DNA of 64,000 bases from Saccostrea cucullata (GCF_032062105.1 NW_026932430.1:62001-126000); one strand, 5' to 3'; counted from the first letter of the stretch, positions 12,451-64,000 are shown. Notes: generated from the letters alone by a model not told the origin. Numbers and translations are program-made.

Positions 12451-15400
12451 CTAACTGAATTCCCTGTTCCTGAGTACCATTGGAGCGATCAGTGTCCAGA
12501 GATACAGGACCACACACACCCAGGAGGACACGATCTTCACCCACACCGAGGGCATGTTGGCATTCAGTGTCTTGAAGTCAGAACTTGGGCTGTAAAAGAA
12601 CATTTGTAGAGTTAATACAGTCTATACTACATGTACCATCTATTTACAGGTAATTCAGTTTGTTAATACATTAGAAGGTAGCCCCAACCCCAGTTAAGAA
12701 ATCTCTGTCTGTTTATTTCATACATATATAAAAAAAAAACGCAAAACAAAGTCAAAAAAATATTTTTGGCCACTCCTGTACCTGTAGGCAAGTCCATTCA
12801 TATTTGAGAGTGAAGATTGATACCAGTATATAAATTTGACCTTATCTATACATGTGCGCATGTCCATAGTCAGGCATTTGTAAGCATGTCCAGATTGAGA
12901 CATACATTTGACCCATTCTATATGCCTGTTGGTAAATCCAGATTAAGACATACATTTCACCAAGCCTGTGTTTAACTGTCAGTCCAGCAGTCCAACATTT
13001 TATTCAGCTGTACTTGTTGGTCCATCAAGACTTGAGACATTATATTATGAACTTGGCCTTACTTGAGCTAGTTGATCTGCCAAGACTGAGACACAAACTT
13101 GACCTTCCCTGTTGATTAGTCCTGACTAAGACACAAACTTGGCCTAACCATACCGGTTGGCCAGTCCAGACTGAGATATAACCTTGACCTTACCTGTACC
13201 AGTTGGCCAGTCCAGACTGAGATATAACCTTGACCTTACCTGTACCAGTTGGCCAGTCCAGATTGAGATATAACCTTGACCTTACCTGTACCAGTTGGCC
13301 AGTCCAGACTGAGATATAACCTTGACCTTACCTGTACCAGTTGGCCAGTCCAGACTGAGATATAACCTTGACCTTACCTGTACCAGTTGGCCAGTCCAGA
13401 CTGAGATATAACCTTGACCTTACCTGTACCACTTGGTCAGTCCAGACTGAGATATAACCTTGATCTTACCTGTACCAGTTGGCCAGTCCAGACTGAGATA
13501 TAACCTTGACCTTACCTGTACCAGTTGGTGAGGGTCATCATCACGTAGAGTGATGCCAGAGCCAGCATGAAGTGGAAGAAAGAGTAGCTGTAGGCCACAC
13601 CCTCCTCTTCATTGTCCCACACATGTTGTTTCCCCTTCTCCTCATCACCAGAGTCAGAGGCACCTGTAAACAAGTAAACAAAGCACCTGTAAACAGGTAA
13701 ACAAGGCACCTACAGAACATGTAAACAAAGCACCTGTAAACAAGTAAACAAACATCTGGAAACAAGTACACATGTAAACAGTCATTAGCACTTCGTTCTT
13801 TTAACCTCTACATCGAAATACTGTAGAAGTACTTTTTTCCACAGGGTCATAATTTGCGGAATCTCAATTTCTGTTTAATCCGTGGGTAGAAAATTATGCA
13901 GATTTCTTAGACGGTCACTAAATGCTTTATATTTATATTAAGTACGCCTGGACAAATTTCCGCGGAAAATTTGTGACCGTGTACATAGCGTAGATTAATA
14001 CCACATGGAAAAAAGTATTCTACAGTAGCTGACTGAAACAAAAAGTGTACTGCAGGATAGAAGCTTCATTATGACAGAAGAGTCCAGCTATAACATTAAA
14101 GCTGTTTCGCATTTTTCCTATCTGGTAGTTCTATCATTATCAGATCAATATACTTTAAGTTTTATGACAAGGGAATTAACGAATCATGGGTTTATGTGCT
14201 AGTTTTCCATAAATAACACACTAAATGAGAAACTACGTCAAAGACAAAGAAAGAGCCTACTATACGTGCTGACAGATATTCACAAAAAATGAAAGAAAAA
14301 AAATTTAAGACACAAAGACATAACAAAAAATACATGAATCTCTAAAAATTACACACCCCTTCCAATCAGACTTTGATAAATTAAATGTAATACAGTGTAT
14401 ACCATAATTTGAAAAGAAATTTAAGTTAACAGTACTGTGGTATTCAAAATCTAAATAGATGGGAGTCAATTCAGTAACTTTCTGGTTAAAATATTAGATG
14501 TCACGAAGCATACACTGCTTAAACACATGCTTAAATTATTCAAATTTAAATTTCAAATATTATAACAAATATTATAAACTTCAACATTAAAGTAAAGGTA
14601 TTAAGATTAAAACTCAATATTTCAGTTGCTCTTGACCTGAGAATTATTTTATTATATATACATGTTACATTTATGTGAATTGAGAGAACTGACTGCATTT
14701 TATTATCAATGAAAATGGCTTTATTTTATTTATAAATTGAGCATATTTATCAACAGTGTCTGTTCTACTTCTTTCTAATTTAATGAAATATACTTCAAAG
14801 ATCTTTCTTGCAACTTGATCCAGACCATTGTGTGATAATTTCTGACAATATTTTACAGAAATTCCTTGTCCACAGTGGTGATAAAAACAGGCAGCTGTTG
14901 CAGAATTATGTTCTTTTATGAGATTCAAAGGTATAAAATCTACTATACAGTGTTTCAATGAGAAACAAATCTCAAATTCTCGCCACAATACGAAACTGGA
15001 AGACCTCAAAATTTCTAAAATAAAAGGCAAGTAAGCACAAATTTTACTGAACATTTACTCTACGATTTATAAAGTGCAAGCACTTCCATGACCTGAAAGT
15101 AGCATTTTAAATATATATAACATATACAAGAAATGCTACAATTAATCAAATTTACCGCTTTCTGTTAAAATTGAAAGCTGCCTGTTTTTTTTTTTCAAAT
15201 AGATTACAATTTAAGTATAGGGAATACACATTTTAATGCTTCGAGAGTAAGTACAAGTATATTTATGTGAAGTAAGGATATGTTCTCAACACTGACCAAA
15301 CTCTTCTACTCACCTTTATAACTGTCCCCTGTCAATTCCAAATACCATATACAAACAATTATAGCATGCAATTCCTAATTTATTTATAATTATCTTGTAG

Positions 15401-18400: not shown

Positions 18401-21400
18401 TGTTTCCTCGTATTTCTCCACCCAGCTCTCTGCCCAGCCATGCGCGAAGTCGATCAGGAGAATCAGCTGGATGATGATGAAGAGGAAGGCTCCAATCAAA
18501 CCAATGTACATCCAGGCTGTAATCAAACAACCAATCAGATCATTCCACAGATAAATAGCCTTAAATCAAACCAATGTACATCCAGGCTGTAATCAAGCAA
18601 CCAATCAGATCATTCCACAGATAAACAACCTTAAATCAAACCAATGTACTTCCAGGCTGTCAATCAAACAACCAATCAGATCATTCCACAGATAAATAGC
18701 CTTAACACATCAGTGTATAGGTATAGTCTCTTGTAGAAAGGGCTTCTTACCATAATAAAACAGTATTAAGTGAAAATAATTCTAGAATTTCTTGTAAATG
18801 TCATAATTTTTATTTTACTATAATTTTAATGGAGTCTATTTTATTTGCAATATTTTTTGTAAATCACATATGTGTAACAATGTTTGGTAAATAATTCCGG
18901 ATAGGCAATCTTCTTATATTTGGGTCCGGCTACTATTTGTATATTACGTAATTTCCGCCCAGCATCTTTGTACATCCTAACGTGAACGAAAGAACGATAA
19001 AGTTAAAACTTAGCGACTTGGTCAGGAGAACAAGGTAATTAGCAATTATGTATTCATATGCTCATAGTAACGTTTAACGTCCCTGATCTTGTTAGTTAAT
19101 GTTTCTGATTTTACATATTTATAACGATTACTCTGTATGTAGAGCATTTTTGTACAAGCATGGCTAGTGTGGTTTTATACATGGCGCCATTTTGACCCAC
19201 GTGTAGTGAAATTTTGATTGATAATTATTAGTCCCATAGCAGTTTGTATTTTATATATCATACCAATTTAATGATTAAATAGAACTGACTTATTATGTAA
19301 ATTATCGGTTGTGAGATTATTTGTTGTGCACATGGAATTTTTGTGTCATGATTTACTTAGAGTTATTGCCCTTTGTACGGTAATGTAAGGCAAGGCGCCA
19401 AGTTTGTTTACATGTTTTAAGTGAAGTAGCAAAGTCATATTTTCTGATTGTCACTGGTAATATTTTATTGAGATTAAGTAATGAATTAAATTAAACGTAT
19501 AGATGTTATTCATATTACATATTACTAGTCAATTAGCTGATATTATTGAATATTGAACTCTAGTCTACATGTGTATGTATACCAAAGGGTCATCTTAGTG
19601 CATGTTTGTGTACTTAATGTAATTTAGATTTTCTTGTTAATTATTACTGATAAATTTTGTATTTGTTTTACAGTTCTTACGTTGATGTATCGTTGATGTA
19701 ACCATCCTGAACTAATAAAGACATCATCAGTATATATGAACGTTCCTTTTATGACCAAGCCACTAATAGTAAGAACTTGACTTCAGTCTCATCAAGATGT
19801 CAAAGGTTGATGACAAAACAACCCCGGATGGTACAACGCCTGATGTTACGGATACAGCTAATGGTACAACATCCAGCGAAAACTATGATACAACGATGAA
19901 TAACGAAAACAACGAACCAGTGAATAATGAGACACAACAAACGACAAACAAAGACACTTTACTTGTGGGACAGAGGAAGTCTGAACAGGTACATAAACCC
20001 ACCGACCGAATGTTAGATTACATGGACCAGGAGTCTAAGAGACGTGAAAAGAGGATTCAATTGTGCTTCGATCGATGGAAGTTCAAGGTCAGAGAGTGTA
20101 GACAAAATGTGAAAATAGAGTCCAGTGAAGAAGATCTTGGAAACATGTTAGACGAAATATTGAAGCTGGAAAGAGAGGTCATAGAGGCTTTTGAACATTT
20201 GCGTAATTCATGTAGTGCACCACACCAAAGTGTAGTTCGGAAAGTGGACGCTTGTGTTGCTATTTCTAAAGACATAACTCATCTCATCAATGAAAAAATC
20301 TCAGGATTTGAAGACACCATAGACAGTCGTAAAGGTTTAAAGCATAATGAGTATGCTAGGTCTGTGTTTAGTGACTTAAGTTGGTCTAGTGTCTCGGAGA
20401 GTGATTCGATAAAATCACAACTGTCCTCAAAGTTCGTGGATGCCCTCGCAGATGTAGCAACCAAAAGGGTAGAACTGGAGTCGATAAAGAAAGAAGAAGA
20501 ACAGCAAACAAAGTTTGAAGCACTGCAAGAGCAACAACGAAAACTACTAGAAACTCAGCAGCGGGAAGTGAGAAAATTGCAAGCAGAGAAATCAGTTGCA
20601 ATGGCAGAAGCAAGACTTAAGGCCTACTCGGATTTGATGCAGGGGGATGTGAACATTGCTGCAGCCACAAGCAGACGTCAAACTGAACATGACACTTCCT
20701 TTAGAAGACGTCCAACTGACCCCCCGGCTGTTACGACTATTGTTAGCCACCCTTCGATTACACCAGTCGTCACGTCTACTACTCGTCCTACCGTTACACA
20801 CACTGGGAGGTCTACGTATACTCTATTCAACCCACCTACTAACAACGCTACAGTCAACTCGAACAGCACCACAAACGATGATTCTACAACAAGTATCTTA
20901 GCAAAGGTGTTTGCGGACTCAGTGAACCTTAATAGACTACCTATACCTGAGCCGTCAGTGTTCACAGGAGATCCACTTAGATTCGTAGAATGGAAGACAG
21001 CCTTTCATGCATTGATAGAACGTAAAGGCATTCCTGAGCAAGAGAGACTATTCTATTTGAAGAGATACGTGGCGGGTGAAGCACTACAGGCCATAGATGG
21101 ATTCTTCTACAGTGGAAGCAGCTCTGCATATGAAAACGCCAGACAAGTCCTGCAGGACAGATACGGACACCCATTTGTTATGCAGAAGGCATTTAGGAAG
21201 AGACTAGAGAATTGGCCCAAAATCACAGAAGGGAATTCAAAGGCTCTCAGAGATTTTGGAGACTTCCTACTAGCCTGTCAAGATGCAACGCCTCAGGTTC
21301 CAAGCCTTAAAATTCTGGACGACTGCTCTGAAAATCAGAAACTATTAAGCAAACTTCCTAATTGGGCTGCACTGCGTTGGAATCGTCAAGTTCAAGAAAC

Positions 21401-24400
21401 TATTGACTCTACTGGTGAATATCCATTATTCTCCAAGTTTGTGGACTTCGTCGTAAAGGAGGCTCGCATTGCTTGTAATCCAGTCTCGTCAATCTATGCG
21501 CTCAAGGACACTGACACTAAACCTTCAAGAGAGCACAAAAACTCGAGTTGCAAAGCAAATGTCCTCAACTCATCAGCACAATGCAACGGGAACTGACATG
21601 AGACCCAACTTATGTGATTATTGTGAGAAAGAAGGACATCCCTTGTTCAAGTGTGAGAAATTTATTAACTTGTCTATTGAGGATAAACGAGTGGTAGTGC
21701 GTAAGAAAAACCTGTGCTTTGGATGTCTACGCAAGGGCCACAGAAACAAGGACTGCAAGAAGAAGCATACGTGTGGTATCTGCAAGGGAAAACACCCAAC
21801 CTGCATGCATGAAGATGAATCACCAACAAGAAAGCAACAATTAGAGGTCAAGGAAGCCAGTTCCTTTCGTGTGAGCAGAGGATATGGTCACAGCACTCCA
21901 TGATCGTTCCGGTGTGGCTTTCTGTTCAGGAGAACCCCTCGCACGAGATATTGACATACCGGTATGCTCTCTTAGACACACAAAGTGACACTACCTTTGT
22001 GCTAGACGAAACGGCTGCTGCCTTGCATGTGAATAGACAACCAACACGTCTCAGCTTGTCTACCATGACCTCACAGCACACTATCATTAACAGTTTCCGT
22101 ATACAGAACCTGAGAGTGAGAGGGTTCAAGTCTACGGAATTTGTGACAATAGACAATGCATATACAAGAGACTTCATTCCTGCGGATCGCTCACATATAC
22201 CTGAAAGGAAAACTATAATGTGCTGGCCACACCTGAAGGAGCTTAGCAATGAACTACCACCTCTTCAGTCATGTGAAGTTGGACTCTTGATTGGATACAA
22301 TTGTCCTCAAGCTCTTGTACCAAGAAGAACTCTAACAGGAAACGAGAACCAGCCATATGGCATCCAGACACTGCTTGGTTGGAGCGTGGTTGGATACACA
22401 GATCGCACAAACTCGGACGTTACTGTTGTTTGTCACAGAACTTCAGTGAAGGAGCTGCATAGCTGTACACCCAGGGATGTCATAAAAACTTTGGAGAAAG
22501 ACTTTGCTCATGACAAGAATGAAGATATAAAGATATCTCAAGATGACATCGCCTTCCTTAACTTCATGAAAGAAAACATACAGCAGCATGAGGATAAGCA
22601 TTTGGAAATGCCTCTACCATTCAAGGAGCGACCCTCCCTGCCCAACAACAAGTCACTTGCATTGATTCGCTTAGATCATCTGAAACGAAAACTTAAAAGA
22701 GACCAGACATATCAAGAACATTACAAGACTTTCATGAGAGAAGTATTGGAAAGAGGCGACGCCGAACCAGTATCGTCAGATGGTGTCAGTGGAAATACAT
22801 GGTATATCCCACATCATGGTGTTTATCACCCGAGGAAACCTGGAAAGCTTAGAGTAGTTTTTGACTGTTCAGCAAGATTCAAAGAGGCTTCATTAAACGA
22901 ATACCTACTGACTGGTCCGGATCTAACAAATGCTTTGACTGGGGTTCTATGCAGATTCAGACAACACCCTGTGGCTGTCATGTGTGATGTGGAGAAGATG
23001 TTCCACCAGTTTGTTGTACATGAAGCAGACCGAGACTTCTTACGACTCCTATGGTGGGAGGATGGAAACTTGGATGCAGAACCCAAGGAATATCGTATGA
23101 GAGTACACCTGTTTGGAGCGCCTTCCTCCCCAGGATGTGCTAATTATGGACTCAAGTTCTTAGCCAAAAGCCAAGAAGAGCAACTTCAAGCTGCATCATT
23201 CTTTATGCAGAATAATTTCTATGTGGATGACGGGCTCACCAGTGTTGAGACAGAAGAAGAAGCTATCAAGTTAATTCAAGATGCACAGATTCTGTGTGCC
23301 AATGGTGGATTGCGTCTACACAAATTTATTTCCAACAACAAGAACGTAATAAATTCTGTTGCTGAATCAGAGAGAGCGGCAGATGTTAAAGACTTAGACC
23401 TTTCACATGAACAATTACCTATGGAACAAGCACTTGGTATAAAGTGGAACATTGAAGAGGATGCATTTTGCTTCAAAGCTGTCGACCAGAATGCATCTCC
23501 TACTAGGCGCAGTATGCTATCCATTGTAGCATCAATATTCGACCCATTGGGATTTCTCTCCCCTTTCACACTGACTGGGAAACGAATACTGCAGGAGATG
23601 TGTCAAGGTAACATAGGATGGAATGACCCTCTACCCGCAGACAGACTACTTGAATGGGAAGCTTGGATCAAAGATCTACAGAACCTTGATCTCATCAAAG
23701 TCCCAAGATGCCTCATACCAAGTGATTTTGGCAAACCGAAAACCTTTGAGCTGCATCATTTCTCGGATGCAAGCACAAATGGCTATGGACAGTGTTCTTA
23801 CCTTAGAGTTGTAAAGGGAACGAAGGTACATTGTGCTTTAGTTATCGCAAAGGCAAGAGTAGCACCTCTAAAGGTTGTAACGATACCTCGCTTGGAATTG
23901 ACAGCTGCAGTATTGTCAGTGAAGGTCAGTTTATTTCTGAAGAGGGAGCTGAATCTACCTATCAACAGAGAATACTTTTGGACAGACTCTAAAGTGGTGC
24001 TTGGCTACATCAACAACGAGGCTCGCAGGTTCCACGTATTTGTTGCAAACCGTGTACAGATGATAAGAGATGCAACAAAACCTCATCAGTGGCTATACAT
24101 TGAATCTGCCAGCAACCCAGCCGATCACGCCTCGCGTGGACTGCGTGCATCTGAAGTTAATGATTCTTCATGGTTGACCGGCCCTCCATTACTATGGCAG
24201 TCCATCATTGAAAGCAAAGGTGTTGAAACAGAGTTGCAACTTGGAGACCCTGAAGTAAGATCTGCAAGAACTCTATGCACCAAAACAAAGGCTCATTCTA
24301 GTATCCTTGACATTCTGTCTCGATTCTCATCTTGGACCAAAATGATATCCTTCATCGCCAGAATGCAGAGACTCGCCAATGGTGTCAAGGGAACCTATCC

Positions 24401-27400
24401 ATCAAATCCGATTGAAAGACTTCAAGCAGAACAAACTATCATCAAACACGTTCAACATGAAACCTTTCAAGATGCTATCAGCGCTCTCGAGAAATCTGAA
24501 GGGCTACCAAAGTCTAACTCCCTGAAACCCCTAGAGCCTATTCTACAAGATGGGATACTTTGAGTCGGAGGCCGACTGAGGAAGGCAACCCTGTCTGATG
24601 CTTACAAGAACCCAATAATCTTACCCAGAAATGGTCATATCACGCACTTGATTCTTTCACATGCTCACAAGGAAACCTTTCATCAAGGAAGAGGAATTAC
24701 CCTGAACAAGCTCCGGTCTCTTGGCTATTGGATTGTAGGAGGAAGTAAGACAGTAGCCAGCTACATATGTCAGTGCGTTATATGCAGGAAGTTGAGACGA
24801 CCGACAGAGACACAGAGAATGGCAGACTTGCCCAAGGAGCGTATGGAACCATCTCCGCCTTTCACATATTGCGGTATGGACTGTTTCGGCCCATTTATTG
24901 TGAAACAGGGACGGAAGGAAATAAAACGATATGGGTTACTATTTACCTGCATGTGTTCTCGTGCTATCCACATTGAGATGTTAGATGACATGTCTACAGA
25001 TGCGTTTATCAATGGTTTGCGCTGTTTTATCGCCATTAGAGGAACTGTGCGACAGTTGCGCTCGGACCAAGGAACCAATTTCATTGGAGCTAAGAATGAG
25101 TTTCAGAAAGCACTCAACAAGGAAAGAATATGTTCATTCTTGGCAGAGAAACACTGTGAATTCGTGTTTAACGCGCCCAGTGCTAGTCATACAGGAGGTG
25201 TATGGGAACGTCAAATAAGAACCGTCCGTAACATACTCAATGCCATACTATTACTTTGTCCTGGAAGACTAGATGATTCCTCACTGAGAACCGTATTCTA
25301 TGAAGCGATGTCTATTGTAAACGGTCGCCCACTAACGGTTAGTGAGATAGACAACCCAGACTCACTGAAGCCGCTTACTCCGAACCACATCTTAACTGGG
25401 AAGACCACTTCTCCCCTTCCCCCTCCTGGAGAGTTCGTGAAGGAAGACATATATGTCCGTAAACGTTGGAGACGTGTACAGTACCTTATGGAACAATTTT
25501 GGTCCCGTTGGAGACATGAATACTTGGCTCAGATCACCTTACGACAGAAGTGGCATGGAGTTCGTCGGAACATCAAGGAAGGTGACATTGTTCTGGTGAA
25601 GGACGTTGACCTGCCACGCAACCAATGGCCTCTTGGTAGAGTTGTCGAAGCCAACCCAGATGATGATGGTCTTGTACGGAGAGTCAAGGTGAAAATGCAG
25701 TCTGGAGTTCTGGAGAGAACAGTTCATAAGCTTGTGCTACTCATTGCAAATTAATGTAACTGCTATGTTATAGTTGTATGTTGTATTCTAGACGATATGT
25801 AGATTGCAAGCTTAACACCTTTATTGATACTTTGAATGTCTAAAATCATGCTGATTTTGGTGGGAGTGTAAATGTCATAATTTTTATTTTACTATAATTT
25901 TAATGGAGTCTATTTTATTTGCAATATTTTTTGTAAATCACATATGTGTAACAATGTTTGGTAAATAATTCCGGATAGGCAATCTTCTTATATTTGGGTC
26001 CGGCTACTATTTGTATATTACGTAATTTCCGCCCAGCATCTTTGTACATCCTAACGTGAACGAAAGAACGATAAAGTTAAAACTTAGCGACTTGGTCAGG
26101 AGAACAAGGTAATTAGCAATTATGTATTCATATGCTCATAGTAACGTTTAACGTCCCTGACCTTGTTAGTTAATGTTTCTGATTTTACATATTTATAACG
26201 ATTACTCTGTATGTAGAGCATTTTTGTACAAGCATGGCTAGTGTGGTTTTATACATGGCGCCATTTTGACCCATGTGTAGTGAAATTTTGATTGATAATT
26301 ATTAGTCCCATAGCAGTTTGTATTTTATATATCATACCAATTTAATGATTAAATAGAACTGAATTATTATGTAAATTATCGGTTGTGAGATTATTTGTTG
26401 TGCACATGGAATTTTTGTGTCATGATTTACTTAGAGTTATTGCCCTTTGTACGGTAATGTAAGGCAAGGCGCCAAGTTTGTTTACATGTTTTAAGTGAAG
26501 TAGCAAAGTCATATTTTCTGATTGTCACTGGTAATATTTTATTGAGATTAAGTAATGAATTAAATTAAACGTATAGATGTTATTCATATTACATATTACT
26601 AGTCAATTAGCTGATATTATTGAATATTGAACTCTAGTCTACATGTGTATGTATACCAAAGGGTCATCTTAGTGCATGTTTGTGTACTTAATGTAATTTA
26701 GATTTTCTTGTTAATTATTACTGATAAATTTTGTATTTGTTTTACAGTTCTTACGTTGATGTATCGTTGATGTAACCATCCTGAACTAATAAAGACATCA
26801 TCAGTATATATGAACGTTCCTTTTATGACCAAGCCACTAATATTTCTGTTTCAAATTATACTTCTATACTTATCATCTAATGATATAAACAAGTGTTTTC
26901 ATTTTCCCCTCAAACATTAGCCAATGTTACCCCTCTGAATCTGTATAAAAGCATACCATGCATTTAATGGCAGTTCCTTTAAAGAATATGAAGATTTTTA
27001 TCTAACAATACTATATAAGGCAATTCAAGAAGCAGAGTATAAAACATTTCTTAGCATCTTTTTAAAAATAAAATTTGTTAAAAGAAAAAAAAACATTTAA
27101 ATGATGTGTTGTAAGATAAGTACTTACCAATACCAAATTCTCCTCTAGGAATGAAGAAAGCTCCAACACAGATAGCAATTAGAACGAGAATCTTAATGGC
27201 CCAAAAACTGAAATTAAATTTTACAATCATGTATATCAGCTGTATATCAGCATGTTTATTTGAAAAGAAGTATGAAAGAAAAAACTTCCAAGTGTACATC
27301 AAATTTTTATCTTCATCTCATCTACTACCTATGTACCTATCAGTAGATTAATTTAACTGTCCTTACTTTGTCACGGGGACTACAGATACGTACAATACAG

Positions 27401-37863: not shown

Positions 37864-40800
37864 ATGGCTCAGTTTGCTGTAATTGAGCAAGCTAAAAAAT
37901 CCCTGAAGACTGTTCAGGAGTACATCAAAGTGGGCATGGAAACCACGCTAGATGTCGCTCAGGATTTCGCAGACAGTAAAATTGGTCAGTGTTGTTGAGT
38001 GTATGTTTGTTTAACATTGTGAACCAATTGTTGTGCATGGTATACAGGCATTCTTGTGTGGTATTACATATTGCATGAGCATTAACTGCAGCATATACGC
38101 TTTGTATTACAGACATGAAAAAAAGATGCAAAATTAATACCGGTAATATAGTGTTTCATTTTTGTTTGTCATTTTCTTTCTCACAATGGCTCTTTAAAAT
38201 GAATGAATATTGGCCACTTAATTTGAAAATGCTCATTAAAAATGAAAGCAGTGTTGTCTTAGTCCAATTGACCTTCATGGGTTCCCAATCACTGCCATCA
38301 GAAATGACCATTGCATAAAGTATCTTTGTTAAGAAGGTTCAGTCTGACCATCTCATGGCACATGTAGACATACACACAATGATAAATTTGAAATCCAAAA
38401 TGTTTCATGCAATGGCATCAAAATTATCCTTAGCTCTGACTGGAAGTTTAGTAAATACTACACAACTCATTGATGTTAGGTATGACCAATTTTTAATTAT
38501 GAAAATTAACAGAAAGCTTGCAATGAATTTCAATTCATTATAAAATGAAATTCATCTAAAGCTCAATTATACCTTTGTGCAAAAGTTTTTTCCTCAAATA
38601 AATCAGAAATACAAACTCAATTAAGAAATACGAATCCTTTTTTTGTGTTGAAATTTCATTAAGAAAGCCTATTTAATTTCAGAGAGTGAAAAGGAGATAG
38701 ATATTCTGAAGAGTGTGATGAAGGACTATGTACAAATGGAGAGAGATCTAGATGATTTCATGAACAGCGTAGAAGATGTAACAAAACAGGTACGTATTAC
38801 GTCATGAACAGTGTAGAAGATGTAACAAAACAGGTTTGTGTTTGGTCATGAACAGCGTAGAAGATGTAACAAAACAGGTACTTGTTACGTCATAAACAGT
38901 GTAGAAGATGTAACTAAACAGGTTTGTGTTACGTCATGAACAGTGTAGAAGATGTAACTAAACAGATTTGTGTTACGTCATGAACAGTGTAGAAGATGTA
39001 ACAAAACAGGTACGTGTTACGTCAGGAACAGTGTAGAAGATGTAACAAAACAGTTTTTGTCTCGCCTGCGACGAATGTCGCGAAGCGAGACATAGCGACC
39101 ATAGATTCCGTCGTCGTCGTCGTCGTCGTCGGCGTCCAACTTTTGGTTAACCCAAATGTCAAAGTTTTATAAACTGCAATAACTTTCTCAAATTTTATTC
39201 AGTCTTCTTGAAATTTGGACACAATATTCAGTATGGATAAAAATTTATATCCCAAGTATGATTTTGAAAAAAAAAATTCAAATTTTTCCGTATTTTTTCC
39301 TTAAGTTGGACTTAGTTTTTTCATGATAATTTATGGTGAAGACCTATATTCCAGCAACTATAAGTTATAGGGATATGATAATTAGTCAGTGGATACATCA
39401 TGGGTAACCACAAACGTCAGTACCAGAATTAGGTCATCTTGACCTACATTTTTCTGCATGAGTGACTTTGGTTAAATTTTTGGTGGAGGTCCATATCTCA
39501 GCATCTATAACTTATAATGGCATGATGATTTGTCATTGTACAGGTTATAAGTAACCAACAACATCAGTACCAGAATTAGGTCATTTTGACCTACATTTTT
39601 CTGCATGAATGACTTTGGTTAAATTGATAATGGAGGTTCATATTTCAGCAACTATAACTTATAGTGGCATGATAGTTAGTCAGTGGATACATCATGGGTA
39701 ACCACAAACGCCTGTACCAGAATTAGGTCATCTTGACCTACATTTTTCCGCATGAGTGACTTTGCATAAATTTATGGTGGAGGTCCATATCTCAGCAACT
39801 ATAACTTATAGTGGCATGATAATTTGTCAGTGGATACATCATGGGTAACCACAAACGCCTGTACCAGAATTAGGTCATCTTGACCTACATTTTTCCGCAT
39901 GAGTGACTTTGCATAAATTTATGGTGGAGGTCCATATCTCAGCAACTATAACTTATAGTGGCATGATAATTTGTCAGTCTACACATCATGGGTAACCAAC
40001 AATATCAGTACCATAATTAGGTAATCTTCACCTACATTTTCTGCATGAATGACTTGATACATATACAGTGGATTTGATTTCAAAATGCAAGTTCAAATTA
40101 TTGCGACTCATAACACGTTGCAATATTCGCAATAATAAAAACATCACAATAATTTGTGAATTTACAGGGTATATGTATATATATATAAATGCCAATATAA
40201 TCGCCAAGGGATTAGATATTAAGTCAGCTGTTCCATTTCTTTATTATTGTATTTTTGAGTTATTCCTTCTGAAATGTCAATAAATGCTTCAGTTTATCAG
40301 ACAATCATTTCTTACTAACCACAGCGACAGCAGGCGAGACACAGGGTTGCGGGCAACCCTTACGTACTTTTTGTTTAGTCATGAACCATATAGAGGATGA
40401 AACAAAAAAGGTTCATGTTTAGTCATGAACAGTGTAGAAGATGTAACAAAACAGATCAACTTAGTGATCACAATCTGTTCATGAATTAGATCCTCATCAG
40501 AAAAATTATTTTATAAAAGAGATTTCCATTAAGGAGAGTCGCCCGCCTGGCGCAGTGGTTAGATCATCTGCCCTAGAGTCACGAAGCAAGGAGTTGATCC
40601 TTAGGTTTGGGGTTCGAATCCCACTGTGGGACATGGAGACCGTTCTTTGGATGAGACTGTATAAACCCAGGTCCTGTGTCGCAGTAAGTGTTGGCATGAA
40701 AAAGATCCCTCCTTGCTCAATGGCCCTGACTGCCCCTGAGGTCACGGATATAGGACAAAATTTGCAGCTCTCCACCGGCAAATGGTGGTGTCTCCATATG

Positions 40801-46700: not shown

Positions 46701-49700
46701 AGGCGGTCCTGTCAAACAGATAACGGGGGTGGGGTTCTTTGTGTTCACTGAGCGCCACCAGGCGGGGCCCTGCCTCTGCCTTCTTAGCCCCATCACGTAC
46801 AGCCCAGATAGGGGTGGGTCTGGAAAAGGAAAAAAAATACAGATAATCAAAGATTACAAAGCTCCTCAATGAATATCTGTACGGCAAGTCTCATCTCAAT
46901 TTTTTTTTTGGGGAACTTGAAATCAAAATCCATGCAAGTTTGGTATTGGTATTATATACAGGTACCAGCACCAAAAACCTAACTCATCTTGAAAATACAA
47001 ACCAGATTGATTGCAATTTAGTAAACAAAGTACTGTAGAATCATTATTGTTCGTGGGGGACCAATGTTCGTGGCTTTCATGGGTAAACATGACCCACATA
47101 TTTACATCCCCACGAATGTATATACAAACAATTATTTTATTATTTATCAAAAGTTAAAATGCAAAATAGAACTTGTTATCAACGAAATTACGTCCCCTCG
47201 AACCAGAAAATTTTTGGCTTCCCATCAACATTGACCCCCACGAATAAAACTGATTCCACAGTAAGTCTTTTATCCAGAGTAAGTAAGGTAGTGGTTGCCT
47301 GCATGACACAGTGGTTATAACGCCTGCTCTAGAGTTGCGGAGTAAGGAGTCGATCCTTTAATCGCAGGTTAGAATCCCACCGTGGAACATGGAGACCGGT
47401 CCTTGGGATGAGACCGTATAAACCAAAGAACCATGACACAGTTAGTGCTGCCATGACAAAGATCCCTCACTGCTCAACCGCCTTGAGAGCCTAGTATAGG
47501 TCAAATTTGCAGCTCTCGACCGGCAAGTGCTGCCTGGTATCTCCATATAGTGAAAAATTTCTTGAGAGTGATGTTGCCAAACAACAAACAGACAAACAAA
47601 GTCTGGTAGTGTCCAATATTAGATATGTTTATTCATAACAGGCCATATAGTTATTCTGGGATACAGCTACACCAAGAGGTACATGGAAATGGACTTGCCC
47701 ATTAAATCTAACTTCTCAAAGTTCTCAACTTGGAAGTGTAGGTCAGATCCAGCATTTAAAGCAAGTCTGGTAATCTCCTTCACTATATGCTTCATCCGTG
47801 CAAGTTTGGCTTAGAATGGGCTTGCAACTATTTGAGAATGGGCCTGCTTCTAACACCTTTAACAGCACACCAAAGGCCTATGCCAAAACTAATGCCAAGG
47901 GTATAGCATAAGTTTATCTCAACTTAGTCGAGAAGTACACTAAAACTAGAAATATGTCCATAGGACATGAATGCTCAGCCGAGGGTATGTTAATAGTAAA
48001 TGCTGCATGAAAATTTGAATTTGTGTATAAATTTCAGAATGTCTTGAATAGTGATGCAGTTGAATTGCTTACATCAGTATGAATCAGTATATGAAGTTTA
48101 ACACTAATTTAAGAAAAGTGAGGTCAAAGTCAAAAAAAGTCAAGGTCAAATGATGATGCAGTTGAATAGCTCTCATCAATATGTATCAACATATGAAATT
48201 TGATAAAAAAATATTATGAATGGTTTCTTTAAAACTGAGTTAATCACAATTTGATAAAAGTGAGGTCAAAGGAAAGGTCAAGGTAAAAATAATTTTGATG
48301 CAGTTGAATAGCTCTCATCAGTATGTATCAGCATATGATGTTTGATAAAAATATCTTGTATGGTTTCTTAACTGTGCAAAACACTAATTTAAGAAAAGAG
48401 AGGTCAAGGTCAAAGGAAAGGTCAAGGTTAAAAATGGTGATGCAGTTGAATAGCTCTCATTAGTATGTATCAGAATATGAAGTTTGATAACACTATCTTG
48501 AATGGTATCTTTAAAACTGAGCTAAACACTCATTTAAGAAAAGTGAGGTCAAAGGTCAACATATGAAATTTGATAAAAAATATTATGAATGGTTTCTTTA
48601 AAAAACTGAGTTAATCACAATTTGATAAAGGTGAGGTCAAAGGAAAGGTCAAGGTAAAAATAATTTTGATGCAGTTGATTAGCTCTCATCAGTATGTATC
48701 AGCATATGATGTTTGATAAAAATATCTTGTATGGTTTCTTAAAAACTGTGCAAAACACTAATTTAAGAAAAGTGAGGTCAAGGTCAAAGGAAAGGTTCAA
48801 GGTTAAAAAATGGTGATGCAGTTGAATAGCTCTCATTAGTATGTATCAGAATATGAAGTTTGATAACACTATCTTGAATGGCATCTTTAAAACTGAGCTA
48901 AACACTCATTTAAGAAAAGTGAGGTCAAAGGTCAAGGTCAAAAATGTTAAAGCAGTTGAATAGATCTCATCAATATCTATCAGCCTATGAAGTTTGATGA
49001 AAATATCTTGGATAGTTTTTTGAAACTGAGCTTTGAACTGAGCTAAACGCAAAGTGTGACAGACGGACGGAAGACAGACATGACAAACACTATATGCCCT
49101 GGCCATATTCATGGCGGGGCATAAAGAAGATTAAACTAAATGGTCATTCAAACTTGGTTGTGTAAAGCTCAGGGTTTGCTAGGAACTGCCCACCTGCCCT
49201 GTGACATCACTTTACCTGTCTCCTCGCCAGCCATGCTGATTAGGTGTGCGGTGTCTGGCTAGCTCCTGGACCCGGGCACTGGCAACTGCAATCACAAAAT
49301 ACACCATTCAATCTTTATCATACATTACTTATCAATGAAGTTAATCAAACTTATTGTATTTTGATTCAATTTATATTTATAATAGCCTGAAAAAAAGTCC
49401 AGCTAAGTATCCTTTTTTTTAATAGTGGAAAAAAAATTGACACATTTACCTGAAAAATCAGGTTAAAAATTTGATAACATATTAATTTCAAAAGCACAAT
49501 ACTTATGTCAATATAATGTTAATTCATGTTCAAAACTCAGCATTGGTAATTAATAAAATCTGACTGAACACTTACAAGCAAGCTTGAATGAAATCATTCA
49601 GTATGATACAAAACTTCATAGGCAAGGTGTTAAAATATACAAAGCACACTCAGATTTAATTAAATCAAGTCTTTTAAATTGTGTGCTGAACTTAAAGAGT

Positions 49701-62649: not shown

Positions 62650-63560
62650 GATGTACGAAAGATCTGTGACAGATGTCTGACAGGTGTGCAATAGATGTAA
62701 TCCGTGTGACACAAAGTCTGACAGTTGTGTGATAGATGTGTGACAGTTGTTTGACAGATGTGTGACAGTTGTGTGATAGATGTGTGACAGTTGTGTGATA
62801 GATGTGTGACAAATGTGTGACAGATGTGTGACAGTTGTGTGATAGATGTGTGACAGTTGTGTGACAGTTGTGTGATAAATTTGTGACAGTTGTTTGACAG
62901 TTGTGTGATAAATGTGTGACAAATGTGTGACAGATGTGTGACAGTTGTGTGATAGATGTGTGGCAGTTGTGTGACAGATGTGTAACAGACGTGGGAGAGA
63001 TGTGTGACAGTTGTGTGATAGAAGTGTGATAGATGTGTGAAAGTTGTGTGACAGATGTGTGACACAGATATGTAATACATGTGACACAGAGGTCTGACAG
63101 ATGTGTGTTAGATGTGTCACAGATGTGTGATAGATGTGTGACAGTTGTGTGACAGATGTGTGGCACAGATATGTAATATGTGTGACACAGAGGTCTGACA
63201 GATGTGTTATAGATGTGTGACAGATGTGTGATGGTTATGTGACAGATGTGTGACAGTTGTGTGACAGATCTGAAAGATGTGTGAAATACGACAGGTGTGA
63301 TGGATGCCTGACAGAAATAAGACAGGTGTGATGGATGCCTGACAGAAATAAGACAGGTGTGATGGATGCCTGACAGAAATAAGACAGGTGTGATGGATGC
63401 CTGACAGAAATAAGACAGGTGTGATGGATGCCTGCCAGAAATAAGACAGTTGTGATGGATGTGTGACAGAAATAAGACAGGTGTGATGGATGTGTTACAG
63501 ATCTGAAAAATGTAGATGTGTAGAAATGTGTGAGAAAAGTGTGATGGGTGTTTGACTGAT
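62650..63560. repeat. Low-complexity minisatellite (tgtgtgacag[a/t])n with an embedded 31-bp tandem repeat (about 63290-63495)
   Basis: Direct reading; 31-bp unit gacagaaataagacaggtgtgatggatgcct. Confidence 0.9.
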
Positions 63561-63624
63561 GTGAGATCTCATACATGTGTGGAAGATGAGTGACAGATGC
63601 ATATCTATCAGACGTGCATGTGGT

Positions 63625-63990
63625 AGATATACAATAAGTAATTGTAAGAACAGATATAGATGTACAATTAGTAATTGTAAGTACATATATAGATGTACAA
63701 TTTGTAATTGTGAGTACATATATAGATGTACAATTTGTAATTGTAAGTACATATATAGATGTACAATTTGTAATTGTAAGAACAGATACAGATATAGATG
63801 TACAATTAGTAATTGTAAGTACAGATATAGATGTACAATTAGTAATTGTAAGTACAGATATAGATGTACAATTTGTAATTGAAAGTACAGATATAGATAT
63901 AGATGTACAATTTGTAATTGTAAGTACAGATATAGATGTACAATTAGTAATTGTAAGTACAGATATAGATGTATAATTAGTAATTGTTAG
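63625..63990. repeat. 33/39-bp tandem repeat
   Basis: gatgtacaatt(a/t)gtaattgtaagtacagatata repeated about 10 times. Confidence 0.9.
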
Positions 63991-64000
63991 TACATAATAG

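Follow-up and report, generated by a model that had tools for sequence, protein, structure and literature searches.

The predicted leader RNA of a BEL/Pao retrotransposon in Saccostrea cucullata can pair with the end of U5 through a helix (helix A) that is kept in distant relatives by pairing and not by sequence. We consider it fairly probable that the leader thereby clamps a predicted self-primer beside the primer binding site (PBS) at the start of reverse transcription, standing in for a tRNA. In retroviruses, a host tRNA primes DNA copying. The helix would be a variant of self-priming, and the comparison among relatives supports this strongly. All duplex and fold energies given below are predictions.

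The host element

The retrotransposon spans positions 18793-26842 (plus strand) of the window, which is the whole 64,000-nt stretch analysed, and helix A lies within its 5' LTR. The parts of the element are as follows.

18788..18792 (left) and 26843-26847 (right), no strand: target-site duplication, 5 bp
18793..19768 (+): 5' LTR, 976 nt, TG..TA ends; three differences from the 3' LTR, none in the helix arms
19773..21596 (+): gag frame with DUF1759, first ATG at 19797
21457..21903 (+): Cys/His-rich zinc-knuckle-like stretch in another frame, without Pfam match
21819..24563 (+): pol frame with weak RVT_1 and Peptidase_A17, in-frame stop at its end
24564..25754 (+): integrase frame with Integrase_H2C2, rve and DUF5641
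25859..25866 (+): purine-rich tract, abutting the 3' LTR
25867..26842 (+): 3' LTR; it still has both arms and the intron

The BEL/Pao features found by Pfam are a gag with DUF1759, Peptidase_A17 and an integrase that comes last and carries DUF5641. In structure, the element has direct LTRs, a target duplication and a purine tract, and its ends are TG..TA rather than TG..CA. The closest protein is from Saccostrea cucullata (99% identity over 76% of the query region), and the next are from oysters (85-88%). Since the LTR copies differ at three positions only and the 5-bp target duplication flanks them, the insertion is young; the coding region of this copy is broken, with several frames and an in-frame stop before the integrase.

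The LTR end was placed at 19768: the two LTR copies are identical through 19768/26842, the 5-bp duplication flanks 18793 and 26842, and two contigs of run X1 diverge into unrelated sequence at 19768. The U5 arm of helix A (19752-19766) had been taken in the earlier note as the last bases of the LTR, which in fact runs 2 nt further. LTRs ending in TA (19767-19768 here) account for 1 of the 27 in our test set and were also seen at L041:121-122 and L050:431-432; the Saccostrea insertion is nonetheless young, with its duplication intact. No Rfam covariance model matched within 18700-19900 at E<=1.

Elsewhere in the window, 232-nt tandem units at 6123-6710 include two odd tRNA-like calls on the minus strand (6147-6219 and 6379-6451) and are perhaps SINE-derived. 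Tandem arrays with periods of 166, 46, 70, 44, 147, 142, 11, 31 and 33 were also observed together with inverted-repeat pairs, as is usual for bivalve genomes.

7946-8743, 13059-13610, 18487-18697, 38714-40062, 48047-49069, 62650-64000: tandem/inverted-repeat regions

Helix A and the predicted self-primer in the Saccostrea element

The features of the leader, the LTR end and the PBS are listed here.

19010..19024 (+): leader arm of helix A
19025..19028 (+): leader arm of extension helix B2; 2-nt bulge at 19029-19030
19031..19034 (+): first-exon part of the predicted self-primer, 4 nt
19035..19673 (+): predicted LTR intron, 639 nt, GT..AG with pyrimidine tract; splicing absent from reads
19391..19405 (+): second 13/15 partner of the leader arm, intronic; unpopulated in folds, likely chance
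19674..19680 (+): second-exon part of the predicted self-primer, 7 nt; its last base pairs with the first post-LTR base
19714..19719 (+): AATAAA poly(A) signal, 55 nt from the LTR end
19752..19766 (+): U5 arm of helix A
19767..19768 (+): terminal LTR dinucleotide, not part of helix A; 2-nt hinge, first bases of the template
19769..19779 (+): PBS, 11 nt, complementary to the predicted exon junction, without a TGG start
19781..19784 (+): downstream arm of B2

The two arms of helix A form 13 of 15 pairs, as had been claimed, and both mismatches are A-C on the plus strand. The claimed order of leader arm, junction, U5 arm and PBS was likewise recovered, and so was the 639-nt GT..AG stretch at 19035-19673. 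Nevertheless, the case for helix A from this element alone is only moderate, because shuffled LTRs often match and a second match exists in the real LTR. Of 200 dinucleotide-shuffled LTRs, 123 contain an inverted match of 13/15 and 4 contain one with at least 6 G-C pairs; for the 202-nt predicted spliced leader, the corresponding counts are 30 and 3 of 2000 shuffles. The second match (13/15, 6 G-C pairs) joins 19006-19020 to the intron at 19391-19405; the intronic partner was unpopulated in all 12 unspliced folds and is likely a chance match. None of 458 sliding windows from this locus outdoes the true leader window as a partner of the LTR end, and the comparison with 500 leader shuffles gives p=0.004. 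Among the 40 of 79 read variants listed, none lies in either arm.

Joined together, 19031-19034 and 19674-19680 form a perfect complement of the 11 nt that follow the LTR. Compared with the 3' CCA end of tRNAs, the part of the tRNA considered here, the PBS does not correspond, as GT stands directly after the LTR. The match to the element's own RNA, 11 nt here, has 10-13 nt in the 27 elements of our set, which were chosen on this feature, and exactly 11 nt in 19 of the 27. The base after the predicted primer end (19681 in the window) is G in 22 of 27 elements, a possible cleavage-site preference. Just 3' of the primer, 19681-19701 is a short tandem duplication, and contigs of X1 and X4 branch at 19688, which suggests copies without the duplication.

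The joint 19034-19674 was absent from the reads and contigs of four runs (24 listed), in which depth is very low. Raw depth is 14 reads in X21 and 11 in X22, and these reads run unspliced through the donor, as RNA from the 3' LTR or a solo LTR would. One contig of X4, a run whose RNA status is guessed, ends exactly at 19034, which is compatible with a splice branch and no proof of it. We infer splicing because many families have splice signals at this one point and because relatives without the intron lack it precisely. For example, the primer of L033 is split by a 235-nt intron, and L015, with 90% integrase identity to L033, is precisely without that intron. Similarly, the primer of L039 is unsplit in both LTR copies and its sister L053 carries the intron. 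When L015:4315-4680 is set beside L033:6181-6425, a GT..AG candidate intron is seen 1 nt beyond the primer end in L015, whose sequence after it resembles, by eye, the second exon of L033; the intron seems to be kept even where the primer is not built by it. In L021 (4129-5449), the predicted LTR intron has 1321 nt compared to 639 nt in Saccostrea, with the leader arm nearly unchanged. Across the relatives, no common TATA or initiator motif was apparent by eye.

Relatives of the element

Relatives were found with an alignment of the query and 14 homologues. The loci comprise 9 from genome contigs and 78 from metagenome contigs (the best 80 of 504 confirmed stretches), and the viral contig collection gave no relative. 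We scanned 65 gag-anchored regions, the Saccostrea window included, for a PBS starting with GT after CA or TA. A 10-13-nt spliced match at a plausible LTR end was present in 28 of them, and removal of seven same-family copies (L022, L026, L046, L051, L065-L067) left 21 elements; most other contigs begin inside the LTR or have none. Six more (L002, L013, L015, L039, L056 and L072) were added by hand from the positions of LTR and PBS, while inspection of L038, L050 and L080 gave no clear leader. The first 21 elements were picked blind to the helix, and in the six hand-added ones the best U5 partner was viewed together with the junction. L063, with a leader of only 20 nt, was omitted from the helix A tests, so that 26 elements were tested. 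The 10-nt matches in L057 and L083 were rejected as lying away from the LTR end, and an unanchored junction scan was discarded for its many false calls.

Identity of the reverse transcriptase (RT) to the nearest neighbour is 49-68% (20 of the 21 elements, with usable RT), save for one trio at 80-84%. L002, L004, L006, L068, L072-L075 and L077 form one clade (support 99/97 in the RT tree, with L006 and L072 placed by the integrase tree), called the negative clade below. Nine animal-type BEL elements (L001-L009) come from GTDB genome bins of prokaryotes, which most likely contain host contamination.

Conservation of helix A

As the arms are too diverged for alignment, a test of cognate against swapped arms was used instead of R-scape. 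In the first 20 elements, the duplex of own leader with own LTR end has -17.1 kcal/mol compared to -10.5 when swapped, and no permutation out of 100,000 equalled it; in the comparison with sliding windows from the own locus, the leader was in the top 1% in 10 and in the top 5% in 15 of the 20. For all 26 elements, the cognate leader/U5 duplex has -15.1 compared to -8.3 kcal/mol (0 of 50,000 permutations as good, p<2e-5), and the own leader is the best of 26 for 15 elements. Against leader shuffles, helix A is significant in 16 of 26 elements, and the split is sharp: 16 of 17 outside the negative clade and 0 of 9 inside. The only non-significant element outside is L016, and 15 of 16 distant relatives there are significant besides the Saccostrea element. 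Outside the negative clade, the cognate value is -19.2 compared to -8.6 for swaps, with six other window pairs null. A window further upstream shows a small cognate excess (-7.4 compared to -6.4, p=0.014), and so shared composition explains about 1 kcal/mol.

The same result was obtained with individual pairs. Among nine disjoint pairs that include a helix-positive element, cognate arms outdo swapped arms in eight, by 10-27 kcal/mol. The exception is the Saccostrea element with its nearest relative L021, where the leader arms are almost identical and the swap outdoes the cognate arms. The sisters L053 and L039 have a common PBS and quite different arms, each matching its own U5. Counting back from the LTR end, the fourth base forms A-U in 7 elements, U-A in 5 and G-C in 1. 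In four of the six hand-added elements, the leader is the best U5 partner in the whole LTR, and the other two belong to the negative clade. Helix A is significant in L015, L039 and L053, and in L033 the arms are complementary by eye.

In the negative clade (9 of 9 tested), the junction/PBS match is kept and helix A is not significant; helix A would therefore be dispensable for the priming scheme there. In one of seven tests, this clade gave a hint of pairing farther beyond the PBS (p=0.025; significance is lost on correction). In the swap tests, pretzel-type (p=0.87 and 0.58), U5-IR-type and local-hairpin pairings were null, as was U5 with the sequence after the PBS (p=0.51).

These data bear on the possibility that helix A is a chance match, or else what is left of an inverted-repeat element within the LTR. 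The frequency of 13/15 matches in shuffled LTRs and the second match in the real one speak for it. However, the helix recurs in 16 families in the same register and with unrelated arm sequences, at RT identities of mostly 49-68%, the control windows are null or reach about 1 kcal/mol, and no target duplication flanks the arms. The swap, shuffle and control-window tests largely refute this reading, and we regard it as scarcely tenable.

Strand, register and the extension helix B2

In a strand-neutral count (Watson-Crick-defined helices with symmetric gaps; 18 elements, L006 included), 16 G-U, 4 A-C and 7 other mismatches were found (p=0.012). The excess of G-U over A-C indicates that helix A is selected as plus-strand RNA. 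A count of 25 to 4 from plus-strand folds was set aside as biased, and the neutral count is preferred. The Saccostrea element is an exception with its two A-C mismatches, because of which its duplex is stronger on the minus strand (-22.3) than on the plus strand (-14.3). One could therefore imagine that the pairing acts on minus-strand DNA, in strand transfer or end protection, where the Saccostrea mismatches become G-T. The minus-strand duplex is also the stronger one in L016, and the swap test passes on that strand, as it does for any Watson-Crick helix. We nevertheless hold this to be very improbable, given the strand-neutral excess across the 18 elements and the cleaner helix of the nearest relative L021, with no A-C and one G-U.

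Helix A comprises 9-20 bp, on average 14.5, and is often interrupted by an internal loop; its first pair lies 31-40 nt before the primer 3' end. The last two LTR bases are unpaired in 17 of 17 elements (all of the 18 but L006), with exactly two free in 9 of 18, and the helix edge tracks the LTR end with an SD of 1.5 nt. These positions support a register fixed relative to the PBS and primer end. The docking proposed in the earlier note therefore came through the conservation test: the helix is kept with changed sequence in relatives, on the plus strand and in a fixed register.

Past the 10-13-bp primer core, the relatives usually have a small primer-side bulge followed by 3-6 pairs with bases just beyond the PBS (B2). 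A first, looser test based on energy gain gave p=0.08 (0.054 without close kin). B2 has at least 4 bp in 16 of 27 elements compared to 23% of swaps, in a register chosen after viewing the data, and this holds without close kin; in the six added elements, its lengths are 5, 6, 5, 3, 6 and 4, compared to 2.9 for swaps. Helix A lies within 3 nt of B2 in 14 of 17 elements without using its bases, and loses at most 2.8 kcal/mol when B2 is retained. B2 is likely real, if less firm than helix A. As helix A adjoins B2 and the primer helix, almost all of the last ~32 leader bases would be paired.

An alternative role in RNA processing should be weighed at this point. The helix could hide the downstream element of the poly(A) signal in the 5' LTR, giving full-length RNA, or bridge the intron and thereby confine splicing to the 5' LTR copy. 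In 12 of 18 elements, an AATAAA or ATTAAA precedes the LTR end by 51-89 nt, and the helix covers the possible site of a downstream element; in addition, U5 would be cut off from the 3' LTR transcript, which would make the helix specific to the 5' end, and helix A is predicted in unspliced RNA. On the other hand, the helix edge follows the LTR end and not the poly(A) signal (SD 12 nt), helix A runs directly into B2, which pairs past the PBS, and the helix is kept in L039, with its primer unsplit in both LTRs, and in L015, with its intron past the primer. We judge a processing role to be quite unlikely.

Folding and pseudoknot topology

The earlier note had described an H-type pseudoknot that becomes compact only once the intron is removed. 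The crossed order of the stems holds. In a classical H-type pseudoknot, the middle loop is very short and the stems are stacked; the geometry here is not of this kind, with a middle loop of 71 nt (19681-19751) and links of 0 and 2 nt. As for the intron, helix A reaches a probability of at least 0.8 in 9 of 12 unspliced compared to 8 of 12 spliced nested folds, which differ in their chosen end points, and it is kept in L015 and L039. From these folds and its retention in relatives without a primer-splitting intron, helix A is independent of splicing, contrary to what had been supposed, and only the tight junction with the full primer helix depends on it.

In nested folding, helix A usually wins over the PBS helix, whose probability is at most 0.29-0.31 in 12 spliced folds, while the forced helix A form and the forced PBS form are equal at -34.5 kcal/mol each. 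Summed, both helices would give about -43.5 kcal/mol before any pseudoknot penalty, a gain of about 9 over the PBS form, and the pseudoknot penalty is of similar size. These values could also be accounted for by a two-state switch, in which helix A and the PBS helix form in turn, or by pairing between two packaged RNAs, with no single-molecule pseudoknot in either case. In a switch, helix A might form first and bring the leader close, or might withhold priming until packaging; pairing in trans needs no threading. However, switches usually share bases, whereas the two arms here share none: helix A stops at least 2 nt before the PBS in 17 of 17 elements and gives up little energy when B2 is kept. 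The ~9 kcal/mol left when helix A is added to the PBS form, before the penalty, point the same way. We think such a switch or trans pairing unlikely.

Coexistence of helix A and the PBS helix is favoured by their non-overlapping arms. The geometry would be that of two ~15-bp helices side by side, with 0- and 2-nt links and a 71-nt loop. Each stem is longer than one helical turn, so that an uncut single molecule would need its 5' end to thread the loop; threading would be easiest with the cap close to 19010, and pairing between two RNAs would avoid it. Of the structured initiation complex claimed to dock the leader at the PBS, the docking is backed by conservation, strand and register; both helices may or may not form at once, the nested forms being tied.

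The proposed primer clamp

Our preferred reading remains that of the leader as a clamp for the predicted self-primer. Transcription would start upstream of 19010, and splicing of the intron would join 4 and 7 nt into a match to the PBS. The last ~32 leader bases, whose complementarity is observed and whose folding is predicted, would then pair three times: with U5 (helix A, ~13-16 bp), with the bases after the PBS (B2, 3-6 bp) and with the PBS itself (11 bp). A cut after 19680 would free the 3' end, probably made by the element's RNase H, by analogy with Tf1. Helix A and B2, which contribute about -16 and -4 kcal/mol beside the -13 of the core, would keep the piece bound to the template after the cut, until the reverse transcriptase displaces helix A after two bases.

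We favour the clamp on account of the cognate pairing, the register tied to the PBS, the G-U excess, B2, the retention of the helix where the intron is absent or moved, and the precedent of ASV and HIV-2. Counted against it are the lack of a splice in the reads, the clade without the helix, the non-significant L016, the A-C mismatches in the Saccostrea element, the L021 swap, the tie of the nested folds, the threading that one uncut molecule would need, the non-significant first test of B2 and the broken coding region.

Comparison with known systems

Tf1 primes with its own first 11 bases, cut by RNase H (PMC7175516), and for the Tf1/sushi group a pretzel of three duplexes is described, in which the additional duplexes are formed with LTR sequence that lies downstream of the primer (bioRxiv 10.1101/2022.12.06.519325, PMC4600332). 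Like Tf1, Tf2 and Tj1 as described there, the Saccostrea element has no tRNA site, an 11-nt match of its own RNA to the PBS and extra duplexes flanking the primer/PBS helix. Its proteins, however, are BEL/Pao and not those of a Ty3/gypsy chromovirus, with no chromodomain match, the extra duplexes in Saccostrea and the BEL elements use sequence upstream of the primer, unlike those reported for Tf1, and the primer of the elements studied here is usually split by an intron. The Tf1 primer is, by these accounts, the very 5' end of the transcript, whereas the conserved pairing in our elements reaches 31-40 nt upstream of the primer end, which argues against the same arrangement.

The T-psi-C arm of the ASV and HIV-2 tRNA primers is reported to pair with U5, and the PAS/anti-PAS model of HIV-1 is reported to be disputed (both in PMC3185550). 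Our elements resemble these tRNA-U5 contacts in that, judging by sequence comparison, U5 pairs in crossed order with primer sequence lying upstream of the end that binds the PBS. They differ in that the primer would be the element's own leader, and in that the helix has 13-16 bp compared to the 8 given for PAS, is free to vary in sequence and lies 2 nt from the PBS. In Ty1, a 5' pseudoknot near the PBS affects reverse transcription, and the primer contacts exceed the 10-nt PBS (PMC3592414). The predicted BEL structure is similar in placing the RNA 5' end in a long-range pseudoknot near the PBS and in its extended primer contacts; Ty1, as described there, is tRNA-primed, with stems of 7 bp, neither of which is the primer helix, and has no intron.

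The main text of the BEL/Pao surveys PMC554778, PMC3118150 and PMC6238403 does not deal with the priming of reverse transcription in these lineages: the terms 'PBS', 'primer binding' and 'tRNA' are absent from it. A search over titles and the beginnings of abstracts in a limited literature collection returned no BEL/Pao self-priming or leader-U5 helix, and an earlier description in print may exist.

Significance

Conservation of pairing rather than sequence in this helix argues, independently of the junction/PBS match, for a leader that docks as RNA at the PBS. This matters because the PBS match could partly maintain itself if the primer templates the PBS, while helix A and B2 could not be copied in this way. 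If the clamp holds, transcription should start upstream of 19010, and the primer piece should measure 32 nt or more. The leader is a short RNA open to direct probing, and the negative clade provides a natural comparison. More tentatively, and with less than even confidence, a wide aquatic branch of BEL/Pao may build its own substitute for a tRNA: a capped, spliced leader of ~32-40 nt that would grip both sides of the PBS as two near-equal ~15-bp helices with 0-nt and 2-nt links, knotted until cut, and that the reverse transcriptase would recognise, cut and extend. This would be a third initiation architecture beside tRNA priming and the Tf1 pretzel.
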